A stretch of 64,000 nt of DNA from Desulfatiglandales bacterium (lineage in GTDB: Bacteria > Desulfobacterota > DSM-4660 > Desulfatiglandales > Desulfatiglandaceae), in the NCBI GenBank assembly GCA_963662465.1, contig OY759599.1:2240001-2304000 (forward strand), given 5' to 3'. The position numbers were made by a program, and so were the translations under genes. Shown here piece by piece: positions 50,864 through 55,323 of this stretch. The first letter of the stretch is position 1. Each line of letters starts with the position of its first letter. Under the pieces are notes generated by a model, which saw only the letters and a program-made list of their open reading frames with translations, had not been told where the DNA came from and did no database searches.

Positions 50864-51117
50864 ACCACCGCATGGACTCATTTTCCCCTTTCCCATGAAT
50901 CCAAAACCAATCCGTTGCGCAATTTCATCCCAGCCAAGATTGTTGACCGTAAACGCAAGGCAGGGTTTGCATGCGACCGCTCACCACCTCTGTTCCGTCA
51001 ATGTTTTCTTTTCGCTTTGAGCTTTTTCAAATACGCTTCTATCTCTTCAGGGATGTTACGGTTCTTTGGCTCATCGCGGATTAACGTGAAAATCGCTACT
51101 GACTTCGCTTTCGCACT

Positions 51118-53020
51118 ATAGGGGTAGGAAAGAGCCTCTTGGCTCTCCCCTCCCTCCGAACCGTGCATGCGGTTCTCCCGCACACGGCTCTCCGGTCGAT
51201 AGTTTCCTCATCGGGATCGGCACGCTGCTAACCGGGCCTCATGCATAGTGAAAAGCCCGATTTTCGCGAAGTAGGCATTCGGCCAGCGGCGGTGGGCTTC
51301 AAGGCTTTTGCCCCAGCCCTTGCGTTTGTTACGACGTAATAATACGGCGCGTAAGCGTCGGCGGACAAACTTATCCACCGCCGCAAACTCAGTGCGGTAG
51401 GCGTGTTTGAAGTAACCAAACCAGCCTTCGAGCATGGGGTTCAGATCATCAATGATGCTTTCCATACTTCCGCTACGTTTGCGCCGGGTCTCTTCCCGGA
51501 TTTTATCACGAAGGGCTTTACGGCTTTTACTGCGTATCCAGCGCTTTCCTGCCTCAAACCGGTATCCCAGGAATTCAAATCCCTGACCCTTTTGTCGACA
51601 GTCGCCAAGATGCGTCTTGTCCGGGTGTAAGCTCAGGTCATTAGCCTGTACCCACTCCCGTACCTTTTGCAAAGCATTCTCCGCTTCCGTTTGACTGCGG
51701 CTGAGGATAACAAAGTCGTCCGCGTAACGCACCATCCGCATACCTGATTCCGCGATCAGGCTGTCAAGAGGATGCAGGTAAATATTCGCAAGCAAGGGGC
51801 TGACTACCGCCCCTTGTGGCGAACCACCCGTCGGTGTCCATCTTTCCAAGCCGTCCATCACGTCCTGTTTCAGGAACATTTGAATCAGATTGAGCAATTT
51901 GCCGTCGCTGATGCGCATTTCGACTTGTTGCATCAGCTTATCGTGCGGAATCGTATCAAAGTAACTTTTCAGGTCGGCGTCCAGTATGAAGGTGTAGCCT
52001 TCCTTAATAAGCGCGTCTACTTCTCGCAACGCGTCCTTGCAACCTCTTTGCGGCCTGAAGCCGTAACTCATCGGCAGAAATTCATGCTCGAATATGGGCT
52101 CCATAACCATTTTAACCGCTGCCTGCACTACCCGGTCTTTGACCGTGGGTATCCCCAGCGGGCGTTGTTTGCCGTCGCTTTTCGGAATGTATACCCGTTT
52201 TACCGCTTCCGGTCGGTACGTTCCCGCTTTCAAGGTTTCATGCAGTTCGGCAAGGTATTTCTCCGCCTGCTCCTTAAAGCGCTTTATGCTGATACGGTCT
52301 ATCCCTGCCGCTCCTTTATTGGCTTTGACACGTCCCCAAGCCGCTTCCAGCGTCGACAAGGCGAACACCTTATCCATCAAACTGTACCATTTACCACCTT
52401 TCACCCCGTTACCCAGGGCTGCCAACATACGTTCCGTCCACACCGATGCTTCCACCCAATCCCATCGGGTTTCTGCCTCGCGTTTAGTTGTTTCCAACAC
52501 TGCCGAGACTGCTTGATTTAGCTGCATCTATATGACCTTTCCGTATCTATCTTCCTATCCTCCTTCCCTCGGCACGGTTTTGCTATCCGCGCTTTTCACA
52601 ACCCGGTATCCGACGCAGGCGGCGGGTACTGGTCTCACGCCGTAAGCCTTGTTAGCAGGACCGTTCTGTCGCTACGGTACTATGAGGACTCTGACTCCTG
52701 CCTCCTGTCACCCCAAGAGACAGGTCTCCCTGCTTATCTCGCTTTACCTTCCAGTCATTCCGACCCCAAACATACCATGCCGTCAAACCATCGCTTTAAC
52801 CGCCATTACAGCGTGGTCTGTGAGTTTCAGGCTTCACCATGGAACGGTAGGCTCGCCACCACATGACACCGAATCGGGTTCGTCATCCTACGGACTGACT
52901 TTTCGCCTCCGGTTGCTCTCCACCCCGCCTCGCGGCGACGCAGTTACCTTCGGCTACGGAGCTATGGCATACTCCGGTACGGACTTTCACCGCACTGATA
53001 AAGCGCCTTCACAGGCGCAC
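51118..53020 (-). mobile_element. Group II intron
   Basis: 5' end GTGCG at 53020; domain V GAGCCGTGTGCGG...CCGCATGCACGGTTC with AGC triad; domain VI and 3' end CCCCTAT at 51118; RT ORF inside. Confidence 0.93.
51208..52527 (-). CDS. ltrA: Group II intron reverse transcriptase/maturase, no endonuclease domain
   Basis: GAAGID, RPLGIPTVKDR, SYGFRP, PQGAVVSPLLANIYL and YADD motifs. Confidence 0.96.
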   Translation of the reverse strand: MQLNQAVSAVLETTKREAETRWDWVEASVWTERMLAALGNGVKGGKWYSLMDKVFALSTLEAAWGRVKANKGAAGIDRISIKRFKEQAEKYLAELHETLKAGTYRPEAVKRVYIPKSDGKQRPLGIPTVKDRVVQAAVKMVMEPIFEHEFLPMSYGFRPQRGCKDALREVDALIKEGYTFILDADLKSYFDTIPHDKLMQQVEMRISDGKLLNLIQMFLKQDVMDGLERWTPTGGSPQGAVVSPLLANIYLHPLDSLIAESGMRMVRYADDFVILSRSQTEAENALQKVREWVQANDLSLHPDKTHLGDCRQKGQGFEFLGYRFEAGKRWIRSKSRKALRDKIREETRRKRSGSMESIIDDLNPMLEGWFGYFKHAYRTEFAAVDKFVRRRLRAVLLRRNKRKGWGKSLEAHRRWPNAYFAKIGLFTMHEARLAACRSR

Positions 53021-53168
53021 CGTTCCCATGCTCTGCGTGGGAACGGTTTTCGGACGCTCTGCGTCCCGGTTTGGAGCCCTAAGAAATGGGCATGTAGCGG
53101 TTCAAAAGACGAATCGTCGGACGCGGAAGCGTTCAAGGTAGGTTCCCCCGGTGGATTGTGGGGAGACG
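53021..53168. repeat. REP doublet (cgttcccaYgctctgcgtgggaacg family)
   Basis: Hairpin at 53021-53045 plus ggacgctctgcgtcc; degenerate inverted copy at ~53118-53168. Confidence 0.7.
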
Positions 53169-53179
53169 GCCAAGACCTA

Positions 53180-53539
53180 TTAAGCCCATTGATTATCAAT
53201 CAGGCTTTCATATGGGATGCCCATCCCGTGGTGCAACCTGAAAATCTGTTTCAGGGAAAGGGTTCTCTTGCGGCTTAAGACATCGCTAACCCTGCTTCTG
53301 GGGCCAAGGAACGTTTCCAGATCTTTGCGTTTCAAATCCAGCTGTTCCATTCTGAACAAAATGGCGTCAACCGGATCGGATGGGGGCATGGGATAATGTT
53401 TGTCTTCGTATGCCTCCACGAGTGTCATCAACACATCCAATTCGTCGCCATCAATTGTACCCATTTCAGATCCCCAAAGGTTTTCAATGCGTTTCAGCGC
53501 TTCACGATATGATTTGTCATCCCGAATCGGTTTAATCAT
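53180..53539 (-). CDS. higA: HigA-type HTH antitoxin
   Basis: LVEAYEDKHYPM...DPVDAI.FRMEQ and SRVSDVLSRKR motifs. Confidence 0.9.
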   Translation of the reverse strand: MIKPIRDDKSYREALKRIENLWGSEMGTIDGDELDVLMTLVEAYEDKHYPMPPSDPVDAILFRMEQLDLKRKDLETFLGPRSRVSDVLSRKRTLSLKQIFRLHHGMGIPYESLIDNQWA

Positions 53540-53844
53540 GTCTGTTGCACCTCCTTTACGTTTATGGCATCGTATTCATCATAGGTGCCGACAAACTTAA
53601 TGTACATGGCTTGCCTCGGGTAATCCATTGCACATACAATGCGATAGCCATTTCCTTTCACATTAAAAACGGCCCTGTCTTTTTCTACAAAAGAGACGTG
53701 GCGGAATGTGTTCTTCACATCCTGAGGCGTTGCCCAATCCTTTTTGACGCAAAAGTGGTACCACTCATTAAGCCAGGGCTTTGACTTCTCATTGCCTGCT
53801 TTTTCCCAGTATTGTCTAAGCCTGCTTTTTGCGATGATTCTCAT
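53536..53844 (-). CDS. higB: HigB-type toxin
   Basis: MRIIAKSRL, VFNVKGNGYRIV and FVGTYDEYD motifs. Confidence 0.9.
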   Translation of the reverse strand: MRIIAKSRLRQYWEKAGNEKSKPWLNEWYHFCVKKDWATPQDVKNTFRHVSFVEKDRAVFNVKGNGYRIVCAMDYPRQAMYIKFVGTYDEYDAINVKEVQQT

Positions 53845-54086: not shown

Positions 54087-54612
54087 AAGAGACGCCTTTC
54101 CCCGGCGGAGGAGAATGCCGGAGAAAGGGAAGCAAAATTAAGGTCTTGGGTCCTGAATCATGATGCCGGCCAGAAATTGAACCAGAACATGATGTTCCGG
54201 GTGGCTTCGGGAAGGCTCATGTAAAGGGATTGAAACAAGGTTTTTACGTCGGCGGCTGTGTATTCTTCCGTGCCCATGCTGATATTTGGGACGGTTTGCG
54301 AGGCATCCCACAAAATCCGTTTGGGTCCGTTGGATGGGGTGGCCCATTCCTCATATCCGAGTCGGTCTTTGCCATATGCGAAAGAAGGTCAGGATCTTGG
54401 CTCCGGACCGTATCATGACGCTCCGCGAGACTGGGGATAGGTTTAAAATTCCTTAGCATTTCAATTTCGAGGAATTCATACAACCCACCTCCGGGACAAG
54501 GCTGAACGCATGTTCAGGGGTATGAAGATGAAGGGGAGGGAATAAAAGAGTAATGGTATCTCAAAAATGAATATTCTTTGACGTTGATCTCTGATTGCGA
54601 TATAGTTGCGGC

Positions 54613-54900
54613 ATGCATGTGATAACACGAAGACGGTTGCTGGAATTCAGCGAGAAATATTCGGATGCCGGTGAGCCTTTAGACCGCTGGTATCGAATTG
54701 TAAAACATACTGATTTTGCATCATTCACAGAGGTACGCAATACCTTTCCACAAGCGGATCGAGTGGGAAGATTAGTTGTTTTCGATATTGGCGGGAATAA
54801 GTATAGACTAATTACCTACATCCTTTATGCTCGGAAAAGAATTTATATCAGGGATATCTTGACCCATCCTGAATACGATAAAGGAAAATGGAAGGAATAA
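54613..54900 (+). CDS. higB: HigB-type toxin
   Basis: MHVITRRRL, VFDIGGNKYRLI and LTHPEYDKGKWK motifs. Confidence 0.92.
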   Translation: MHVITRRRLLEFSEKYSDAGEPLDRWYRIVKHTDFASFTEVRNTFPQADRVGRLVVFDIGGNKYRLITYILYARKRIYIRDILTHPEYDKGKWKE

Positions 54901-54903
54901 CCA

Positions 54904-55323
54904 ATGATTGCATTGGAACAAGAATTAAATGAAACCGTCAGAGTGTGGCCGGTGGCGTCAAAAGTTGTGTCGACCATCCGTACAAAAACCGATTACAATA
55001 AAATGGTCAATCTTTTGGATGTACTGATCGATTCCGTGAGTGAAAAATCAGACCCGGTCAAAGAATCATTGATTGATATACTGGGAACCTTGGTCAAGGA
55101 TTATGAGGATCGAAATATTCCAGAACCGGAAGGTGATCTAATCGGAAGTCTGAAGTATTTGATGGCTGAGCATGGGCTACAACAAAGGGATCTAAAGGAA
55201 ATTGGCAGTCAAGGCGTTGTATCGGAAATCTTAAACGGAAAACGAAAACTGAATATTAGACAAATCAAAGCATTGAGCAATCGGTTCCATGTGTCGCCTG
55301 CTGTCTTTATTGGGGAAGAGTAA
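54904..55323 (+). CDS. higA: HigA-type HTH antitoxin
   Basis: LMAEHGLQQRDL.EIGSQGVVSEILNGKRKLN. Confidence 0.92.
   Translation: MIALEQELNETVRVWPVASKVVSTIRTKTDYNKMVNLLDVLIDSVSEKSDPVKESLIDILGTLVKDYEDRNIPEPEGDLIGSLKYLMAEHGLQQRDLKEIGSQGVVSEILNGKRKLNIRQIKALSNRFHVSPAVFIGEE

Follow-up and report, generated by a model that had tools for sequence, protein, structure and literature searches.

Three target specificities have been distinguished among bacterial group II introns, with every lineage except class C using homing sites (Zimmerly and Semper, PMC4424553). Class C introns such as GsI-IIC and E.r. IIC lack an endonuclease, insert downstream of a hairpin and recognize their target through exon-binding sites 1 and 3 (EBS1 and EBS3) without EBS2 (PMC7923331, PMC10190682), favor the lagging-strand template (PMC8919778), and are marked by a CGC triad and a shortened domain V (PMC7923331). 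The upstream stem-loop has been called unique to this class (PMC10190682), which a 2025 paper names as the hairpin-recognising subgroup (PMC12584367); for IIB and class E introns located at attC, Sonbol and Siam raised upstream structures as a speculation (PMC7923331). Introns of groups g6, U1 and U2, placed near class C, were often located directly behind predicted L- or I-shaped terminators (Miura 2022, PMC8919778). The class D introns RmInt1 and RmInt2 of Sinorhizobium meliloti home into insertion sequences (IS), use EBS2 and are biased towards the lagging-strand template (PMC4615759). Near-exclusive insertion at one position of a repetitive extragenic palindrome (REP) has been described for IS1397, IS621, ISPa11, ISPpu9/10, ISPsy8 and ISRm22, which are moved by DNA transposases, and the sole group II intron entry in that survey is from P. 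putida, where two of nine copies were REP-associated (Tobes and Pareja 2006, PMC1525189). Here we analyzed a window of 64,000 nt (positions 2,240,001 to 2,304,000, forward strand, of contig OY759599.1) from the Desulfatiglandales bacterium assembly GCA_963662465.1, whose single contig of 8.16 Mb is referred to below as the genome. On its minus strand the window carries a group II intron (51118..53020) inserted at a REP-type hairpin. Comparison with its other copies, with empty targets and with homologues makes it probable that this is a recently arrived and recently active endonuclease-less intron of an unclassified lineage, which retrohomes into REP-type hairpins and whose EBS1 has been retuned across hosts. 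Full-text literature searches returned no paper describing REP targeting by a group II intron lineage; most subscription papers lay outside these searches, so a prior mention is possible.

The intron comprises 1,903 nt, from a GTGCG start at 53020 to a CCCCTAT end at 51118, and these ends, which follow the GUGYG...AY form, are confirmed by empty paralogous sites. Domain V (51158..51190, minus strand) is 33 nt long with an AGC triad at 51189-51187 and a 5-nt loop, and domain VI (51118..51157, minus strand) has a bulged A at 51125 and an AU end; together they were matched by Rfam at 51192-51118 with 62.4 bits (cut-off 40). Domain IV contains an open reading frame (ORF; 51208..52527, minus strand) for a reverse transcriptase (RT)/maturase of 439 aa with a YADD motif, which scored 409.7 bits against the NCBIfam group II RT/maturase family TIGR04416 (cut-off 300). 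Its domain matches were RVT_1 and GIIM only, and no endonuclease family was among them. A full-length domain V with an AGC triad and the absence of an endonuclease had both been noted in the initial annotation and were seen again here, with the addition that the 5-nt loop is a IIE/IIF trait (Nagy 2013, PMC3753933). A structure model of the RT (predicted local distance difference test score 90) aligned to the GsI-IIC RT over 420 columns with a template modelling score of 0.81, and the closest solved structures were RTs of class C.

The 5' exon ends in the target hairpin (53021..53045, minus strand), which occurs at ~74 places in the genome. The foot of its 3' arm is IBS1 (for intron-binding site 1; GGAACG, 53021..53026, minus strand), and its 5' arm has the same sequence as EBS1. 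The 3' exon begins with AG (51116..51117, minus strand), of which the A at 51117 is IBS3, and this AG, part of what remains of the repeat's terminal tag, was present at 11 of 11 REP sites. The hairpin belongs to a composite repeat of ~180 bp, of which the larger part, two facing REP arms and a spacer, lies at 53021..53168 and the remaining part at 51066..51117 on the 3' side of the intron. Seven empty copies elsewhere in the genome, 94-96% identical, read ...GCACT/CGTTCCC... (the slash marks the insertion point here and below), and compared with these nothing was gained or lost at the junction. The initial annotation had proposed that removal of the intron restores an intact hairpin at the outer end of a REP doublet. 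The precise junction stood, but the hairpin sits entirely within the 5' exon, so that only the terminal tag is split by the intron and restored by its removal. In this copy the doublet's far arm is degenerate, departing from the other copies after ~53150. A ~30-nt part of 51066-51117 recurs alone at more than 10 other places in the genome; to judge by this recurrence, the composite element contains a second family of repeats. The target fits the description of a REP in being a short, GC-rich, multicopy and extragenic palindrome that occurs in doublets. Its tag is NCTC and its stem of 10 bp starts with GT, compared with the CGTC/TGTC/CCTC tag, 8-9-bp stem starting AT and CCA tail of the CGTC family, to which it is therefore left unassigned. 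A crude ORF test rated 24 of 28 matching but empty REP copies, and nine of 11 filled ones, as non-coding.

Altogether 13 copies of the intron, 99.1-100% identical, were found at 12 sites in the genome, and twelve of them differed from the window copy by at most 4 bases; in the best-matching sequencing run the intron contig reached ~10x the depth of its flanks, a ratio that is not a copy number. Eleven of the 12 sites directly follow the same REP-type hairpin, ten reading GGAACG/AG and one GGAATG/AG, in agreement with the proposal that a multicopy REP-type family is the homing target. This far exceeds what chance placement would give, as only 39 of the 2,260 IBS1 plus IBS3 matches in the genome lie in the hairpin and 11 of the 12 filled sites are among them (hypergeometric 1e-19). 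The remaining site (2868022-2869931) holds a frameshifted copy of 1,910 nt after the third codon of a short ORF, of which two empty paralogues exist (92%; at 282,092 and 7,045,704). At one REP junction (1395772-1399577) two copies stand head to tail, and similar tandems were seen at the homologue loci L048 and L146. An 81-nt remnant, 88% like the end of the intron ORF, lies at 5180929-5181009, with an empty composite repeat ~550 nt away. What looked like a second intron, at 1,102,409 (GGAACG/ATGCGCC), was rejected, as it proved to be an empty hairpin before ordinary sequence.

The 13 near-identical copies with precise junctions point to recent mobility. No close copy was detected at E<=1e-100 in 60 related genomes, many of them incomplete, which is consistent with recent arrival. 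Since three of the 11 filled REP sites carry the 3' part of the composite repeat, the copies could also be thought to have multiplied passively, by duplication or gene conversion of an intron-bearing repeat. This is largely refuted by the fact that similarity among the copies stops at the intron ends while the flanks differ beyond the hairpin, and the strand bias of the insertions and the tandems at the same junction speak against it as well, leaving passive spread hardly credible. The tandems are explained by EBS3: because this base is a U, a filled site still offers IBS1 together with a U·G pair to the first G of the intron, comparable to RmInt2, in which head-to-tail copies are tied to a U-A EBS3 pair (PMC4615759).

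Matching REPs were filled very unevenly with respect to replication. With the origin placed at ~5.75 Mb and the terminus at ~1.78 Mb by GC skew (a dnaA match lies at 5,768,458 and a second one at 4.83 Mb), and with a target termed fork-facing if the intron strand would be the lagging-strand template, nine of 14 fork-facing REPs were filled as opposed to two of 25 in the opposite orientation (Fisher p 3.7e-4), which supplies the count of filled and empty REPs that the initial annotation had proposed. All 11 filled REP sites also share the loop polarity (a loop ending GA) and a G at +2. Among targets with both features nine of ten fork-facing and two of 20 opposite ones were filled, but this definition was made post hoc and the former comparison is the fairer one. 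The insertions are precise, occupy a single strand of the repeat at a point within the complement of its terminal tag, and show a strong preference for fork-facing targets, a bias that fits insertion into the lagging-strand template. The supposed renewability of the target found no support, given that nine of the ten best-fitting fork-facing targets are already filled and that, out of 30 Y1_Tnp matches in the genome, a single one has the repeat within 2.5 kb, at a distance of ~1 kb, and none adjoins it. The one indication that the target is harmless, as was also supposed, is the mostly non-coding position of the introns (10 of 12 sites by the crude ORF test, by which the site in the window is flagged despite its position between two genes).

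The same REP-type hairpin ending in GGAACC/A was filled in none of 20 cases (15 fork-facing), and the hairpin alone is therefore insufficient. Among non-coding, fork-facing hairpins that carry IBS1 and IBS3 and are not REPs, none of ten was filled, compared with nine of 14 REPs (p 0.002). This bears on the possibility that the intron seeks any stable hairpin with a matching foot, in the manner of class C, and that REPs dominate because they are abundant and intergenic and other insertions were purged; in its favor, 64 of the 81 non-REP sites combining a hairpin with IBS sequences lie in long ORFs. A different hairpin, present in 20 copies with identical flanks (for example at 394463, 1261413 and 1533462) and ending in GGAATG/A, a near-match to IBS1, was never filled, even though 12 copies are fork-facing; it is probably part of a mobile element. 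Taken together, these counts and the fork bias suggest that targeting depends on the hairpin, on IBS1 and on orientation, and also on some additional feature (loop, stem length or +2).

To follow the guide sequences across the lineage we assembled 163 homologous loci (80 from genomes, 80 from metagenomes and three from plasmids) and retained 92 of them, in which a GTGYG start stood at the beginning of the 5' RNA profile and the exon comprised at least 12 nt, giving 93 rows with the window intron; rows that were truncated, unmapped, distant or started with GTACG were left out of the pairing counts. The intron segment CGUUCC (intron nt 175-180; 52841..52846, minus strand), which the initial annotation had suggested as EBS1, was confirmed as such by covariation and by its position in an 11-nt loop, the closing stem pairs of which were kept in 49 of 49 aligned homologues. 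Against the last six exon bases EBS1 paired at 507 of 558 positions in the 93 introns, compared with 251±12 in shuffled data (0 of 10,000 reached it) and 182-254 in slid controls, although these statistics overstate independence because the homologous introns are related. As many as 53 versions of EBS1 occurred among the 93 introns, and with one row per version 286 of 318 positions still paired (134±9 after shuffling). When every intron column was compared with the exon positions in an unbiased scan, the six EBS1 columns ranked first and were the sole segment covarying with the 5' exon. Watson-Crick pairs were present in 66-79 of 81 rows at positions -1 to -5 and in 46 of 81 at -6. EBS3 (U, intron nt 251; 52770, minus strand) pairs with base +1 of the 3' exon, and this pairing was found in 77 of 79 homologues in five pair types. 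The covariation hence indicates that EBS1 pairs with the last five to six exon bases and EBS3 with the base that follows.

No EBS2 was detectable by the covariation scan, in which the best 5-nt run upstream of -6 scored 9.4 as opposed to 56.6 for EBS1. The sequence CACGCT, found around intron nt 206 and complementary to the exon at this locus, was considered as a candidate and rejected, as it is part of a conserved stem and no covariation was seen with exon positions upstream of -6. The stem-loop bearing EBS1 (intron nt 164-191; 52830..52857, minus strand) contains the delta base C174 at 52847, which pairs with delta' G151 at 52870; this pair was found in 48 of 49 rows and, being nearly invariant, is weak as covariation. 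Pairs between alpha (intron nt 53-57; 52964..52968, minus strand) and alpha' (intron nt 215-219; 52802..52806, minus strand), the latter at the tip of a stem-loop, were kept in 45-49 of 49 rows with changes on both sides. Homologues starting with GTACG instead of GTGYG were L005-L008, L011, L081-L083, L109, L110, L114 and L119; eleven GTACG rows were inspected by eye, and a loop complementary to the exon end was present there too.

The expectation that homologues would be inserted at the same GGAACG/AG position did not hold, since every homologue carries an individual EBS1 that fits the hairpin at its own site. The targeting habit itself extends across the lineage: homologues lie mostly behind GC-rich hairpins, often of other REP families, and 58 of 84 distinct 5' exons folded at -8 kcal/mol or better, compared with 10% of 5,647 flank windows. 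In 74 of 84 exons the stem ended 0-5 nt from the junction, and IBS1 therefore usually overlaps the foot of the stem. Stem sequences were unrelated across homologues while stem position was constant. Among 70 homologue junctions, 21 read GA/CR and 13 read CTA/C or CTAC/, which are complementary to the REP tags CGTC and GTAG (Di Nocera 2013, PMC3733652), and 16 of 73 rebuilt target sites fit the full CGTC-REP description of that paper. EBS1 versions likewise fell on known REP tags, with 20 of 93 beginning TCAT and 18 of 93 beginning TAG. The target 18-mer recurred within the locus's own flanks in 15 of 44 cases and in one of 44 controls. In four host genomes the CGTC-type pattern was present in 14, 11, 32 and 24 exact copies (what was counted for L003 and L076 is a sibling of the actual target), and in none in a fifth host with another target; genomic matches to the target numbered 116 for L039 and nine in the genome of L036. 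On sequence grounds, many homologue targets are REPs, though not demonstrably all. Of the outcomes that the initial annotation had named as telling against its reading, namely homologues at unrelated sites, CGTTCC outside the EBS1 loop and a single-copy hairpin, none came true.

The same comparison returns to the indiscriminate use of stable hairpins raised above. A sister clade from Bacillota follows T-tailed terminators, g6, U1 and U2 introns stand behind predicted terminators (Miura 2022, PMC8919778), and some homologue targets are low-copy, all of which would suit an intron that accepts any hairpin. On the other hand, the empty non-REP hairpins and the clustering of EBS1 versions on REP tags argue against it, as does the rarity of T-rich exon ends, found in one of 70 homologues, and we consider it quite improbable for this lineage. 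A terminator-targeting reading of the clade was rejected, as no T-tail was present at 11 of 11 genomic sites, one of 70 homologue exons was T-rich and no terminator-like site was called at the intron junction in the window.

The RT phylogeny proposed earlier was calculated by maximum likelihood from 53 RTs and 353 columns (LG+G4). It placed the RT in a clade of 24 rows from several phyla (support 100/99), separate from class C references, which formed a clade of their own (99/99). The clade includes the RT of a plasmid intron on NZ_CP022993 (62% identical), which Miura 2022 labelled 'Unclassified' in a table that gives no U group (PMC8919778). The references fell outside it; they represented C, F (g3), g1, D, B and CL1 as labelled in PMC3552965 and PMC8919778, and the set was without g6, g2, g4, g5 and class E. 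The terminator-following Bacillota clade joined at 95/88, and the deeper branching order was weakly supported. Judged by these sequences, the intron belongs to a lineage separate from the class C and class F (g3) references, and its class is best given as unclassified.

The intron resembles class C in the upstream stem-loop, the use of EBS1 and EBS3 with no sign of EBS2, the missing endonuclease, the lagging-strand-template bias and the structural matches of its RT. It differs in having an AGC triad and a domain V of 33 nt in place of CGC and a shorter domain V (as in the class C-clade row L194), an EBS1 pairing of 5-6 nt instead of 3-4 nt, an IBS1 that overlaps the stem foot where that of class C follows a spacer, and GC-rich REP targets without T-tails, neither terminators nor attC, besides the position of its RT outside the class C references. 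The separation from class C drawn in the initial annotation accordingly held, but the contrast was overstated, as the logic of targeting (hairpin, short pairing, no EBS2, fork bias) and the closest solved RT are class C-like. With classes E and F the intron shares the 5-nt domain V loop, alpha' at a stem-loop tip, a small RNA and the absence of an endonuclease (Nagy 2013, PMC3753933); in contrast to the apparent EBS2/IBS2 of IIE/IIF (PMC3753933), no EBS2 was detectable, and the RT stands apart from the g3 references of class F. Homing into a repeated element and the lagging-strand-template bias recall RmInt1 and RmInt2, which differ in using EBS2 and targeting insertion sequences (PMC4615759); with class D references the RT shares 29-33% identity, and it falls in a separate clade. 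Insertion at one REP position is shared with the REP-targeting IS elements, which are not introns. Like the U1/U2 and g6 introns the present one has no endonuclease, and an 'Unclassified' relative from the same study groups with it, but the available text of that study names no palindromic repeats and contains no EBS1 analysis (PMC8919778); its terminator observation anticipates the hairpin habit and not the link to REPs.

Targeting is best read as a class C-like hairpin habit combined with a guide of 5-6 nt that has been retuned to the ends of REPs. In analogy to class C (PMC10190682) and with RmInt1/RmInt2 (PMC4615759), the spliced intron RNA with its RT would meet the hairpin folded in the single-stranded lagging-strand template, where the thumb and C-terminal domain of the RT may grip the upper stem. 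EBS1 would then capture the bases of the stem foot and displace the hairpin's 5' arm, which has its own sequence, whereupon the RNA would reverse-splice into the target and the nascent lagging-strand end would prime synthesis of complementary DNA. Across hosts the lineage would retain the hairpin habit and retune EBS1 to the resident REP family. In the precursor RNA the same 5' arm could compete for IBS1 and so damp splicing.

Several observations weigh against this reading, among them the kinship of the homologues that inflates the pairing statistics. The twelfth site in the genome is without a hairpin (-2.3 kcal/mol), and 26 of 84 homologue exons missed -8 kcal/mol. Some targets are low-copy, with one match for L047 and none for L029 (draft genomes), and copy counts of the GTAG-type pattern were matched by the control in four of five genomes, with 12 clean hairpins in genome G066. 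Three Burkholderiaceae plasmid introns follow one common short stem, a candidate target whose status as a REP is unsupported; L081 (3900-3950) and L083 are among these introns, and two of the three adjoin tyrosine recombinase genes. In addition, once IBS1 is paired with EBS1 a stem of ~5 bp is left, compared with 12 bp in the class C structure (PMC10190682). A folded hairpin in the ribonucleoprotein is thereby uncertain, and linear reading by the protein is a live rival.

According to that rival, EBS1, EBS3 and the RT read the 3' arm of the repeat as linear sequence, and the hairpin is incidental or merely aids access by stalling the fork. The loop polarity and +2 G common to the 11 REP sites and the unused 20-copy GGAATG/A hairpin with its 12 fork-facing copies could be explained in this way; the stem has to open in any case, because IBS1 overlaps it, and the hairpin-less twelfth site keeps five of six EBS1 pairs and IBS3. 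Such homing is nevertheless unlikely in view of homologue stems that are unrelated in sequence and constant in position, the missing EBS2 signal, and the close relatives L103 and L009 (72-81% RT identity), which differ in guide and target and use quite different arm sequences.

In the window, the intron lies between a higBA-like pair on its own strand and a convergent sigma/anti-sigma pair. The former consists of a higB toxin gene and a probable higA antitoxin gene (53180..53844, minus strand; the antitoxin matched HTH_3 below the cut-off), is situated upstream on the intron's strand and may be a source of read-through transcription for it; a second HigB toxin/HTH antitoxin pair in opposite orientation (54595-55323) is located such that both fall within 2.2 kb. 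At position 51337 (intron nt 1684) the window copy alone differs from 11 other full-length copies, which could reflect a mutation private to this copy or an error of assembly. A contig from one metagenome sequencing run joins window positions 51217 and 52543, dropping almost exactly the ORF, and is possibly an ORF-less relative of the intron, its short side being 20 nt. Joints skipping exactly 1,903 nt, as in a spliced or empty site, occurred in three DNA or unlabelled sequencing runs; they were rejected as evidence of splicing, as their short sides lie inside the repeat and they probably derive from the empty paralogues. RNA runs contained only 5-6% of the sequence words. Rfam reported 49 group II intron matches in the genome. 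Of 18 other introns checked, 14 are oriented against the fork, in contrast to the REP-targeting family. A CGC triad is present in three introns at about 356 kb, 1.76 Mb and 2.58 Mb, yet these group outside the class C references.

A more far-reaching version of the preferred reading, retrohoming into REP-type hairpins, is that a fourth bacterial group II target specificity exists in addition to homing sites, terminators and attC, in which a cross-phylum lineage has specialised on REPs and REPINs, its RT reading REP-specific features of the hairpin, EBS1 invading the stem foot, the guide being re-tuned to the host tag and the intron depending on REP amplification. We offer this tentatively and regard it as doubtful in its full extent. 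If true, the intron would be both a parasite of the REP system and a natural insertion tool that is programmable over 5-6 nt and gated by a hairpin, and the 53 natural guide versions suggest that retargeting is easy. Since one complete genome holds filled and empty targets in both orientations, the rules of recognition are directly testable. Part of the 'terminator' association of unclassified introns would be recast as REP targeting, and a lineage outside class C that combines a hairpin requirement with a longer, changeable guide would bridge two targeting strategies and bear on the question of which of them came first.

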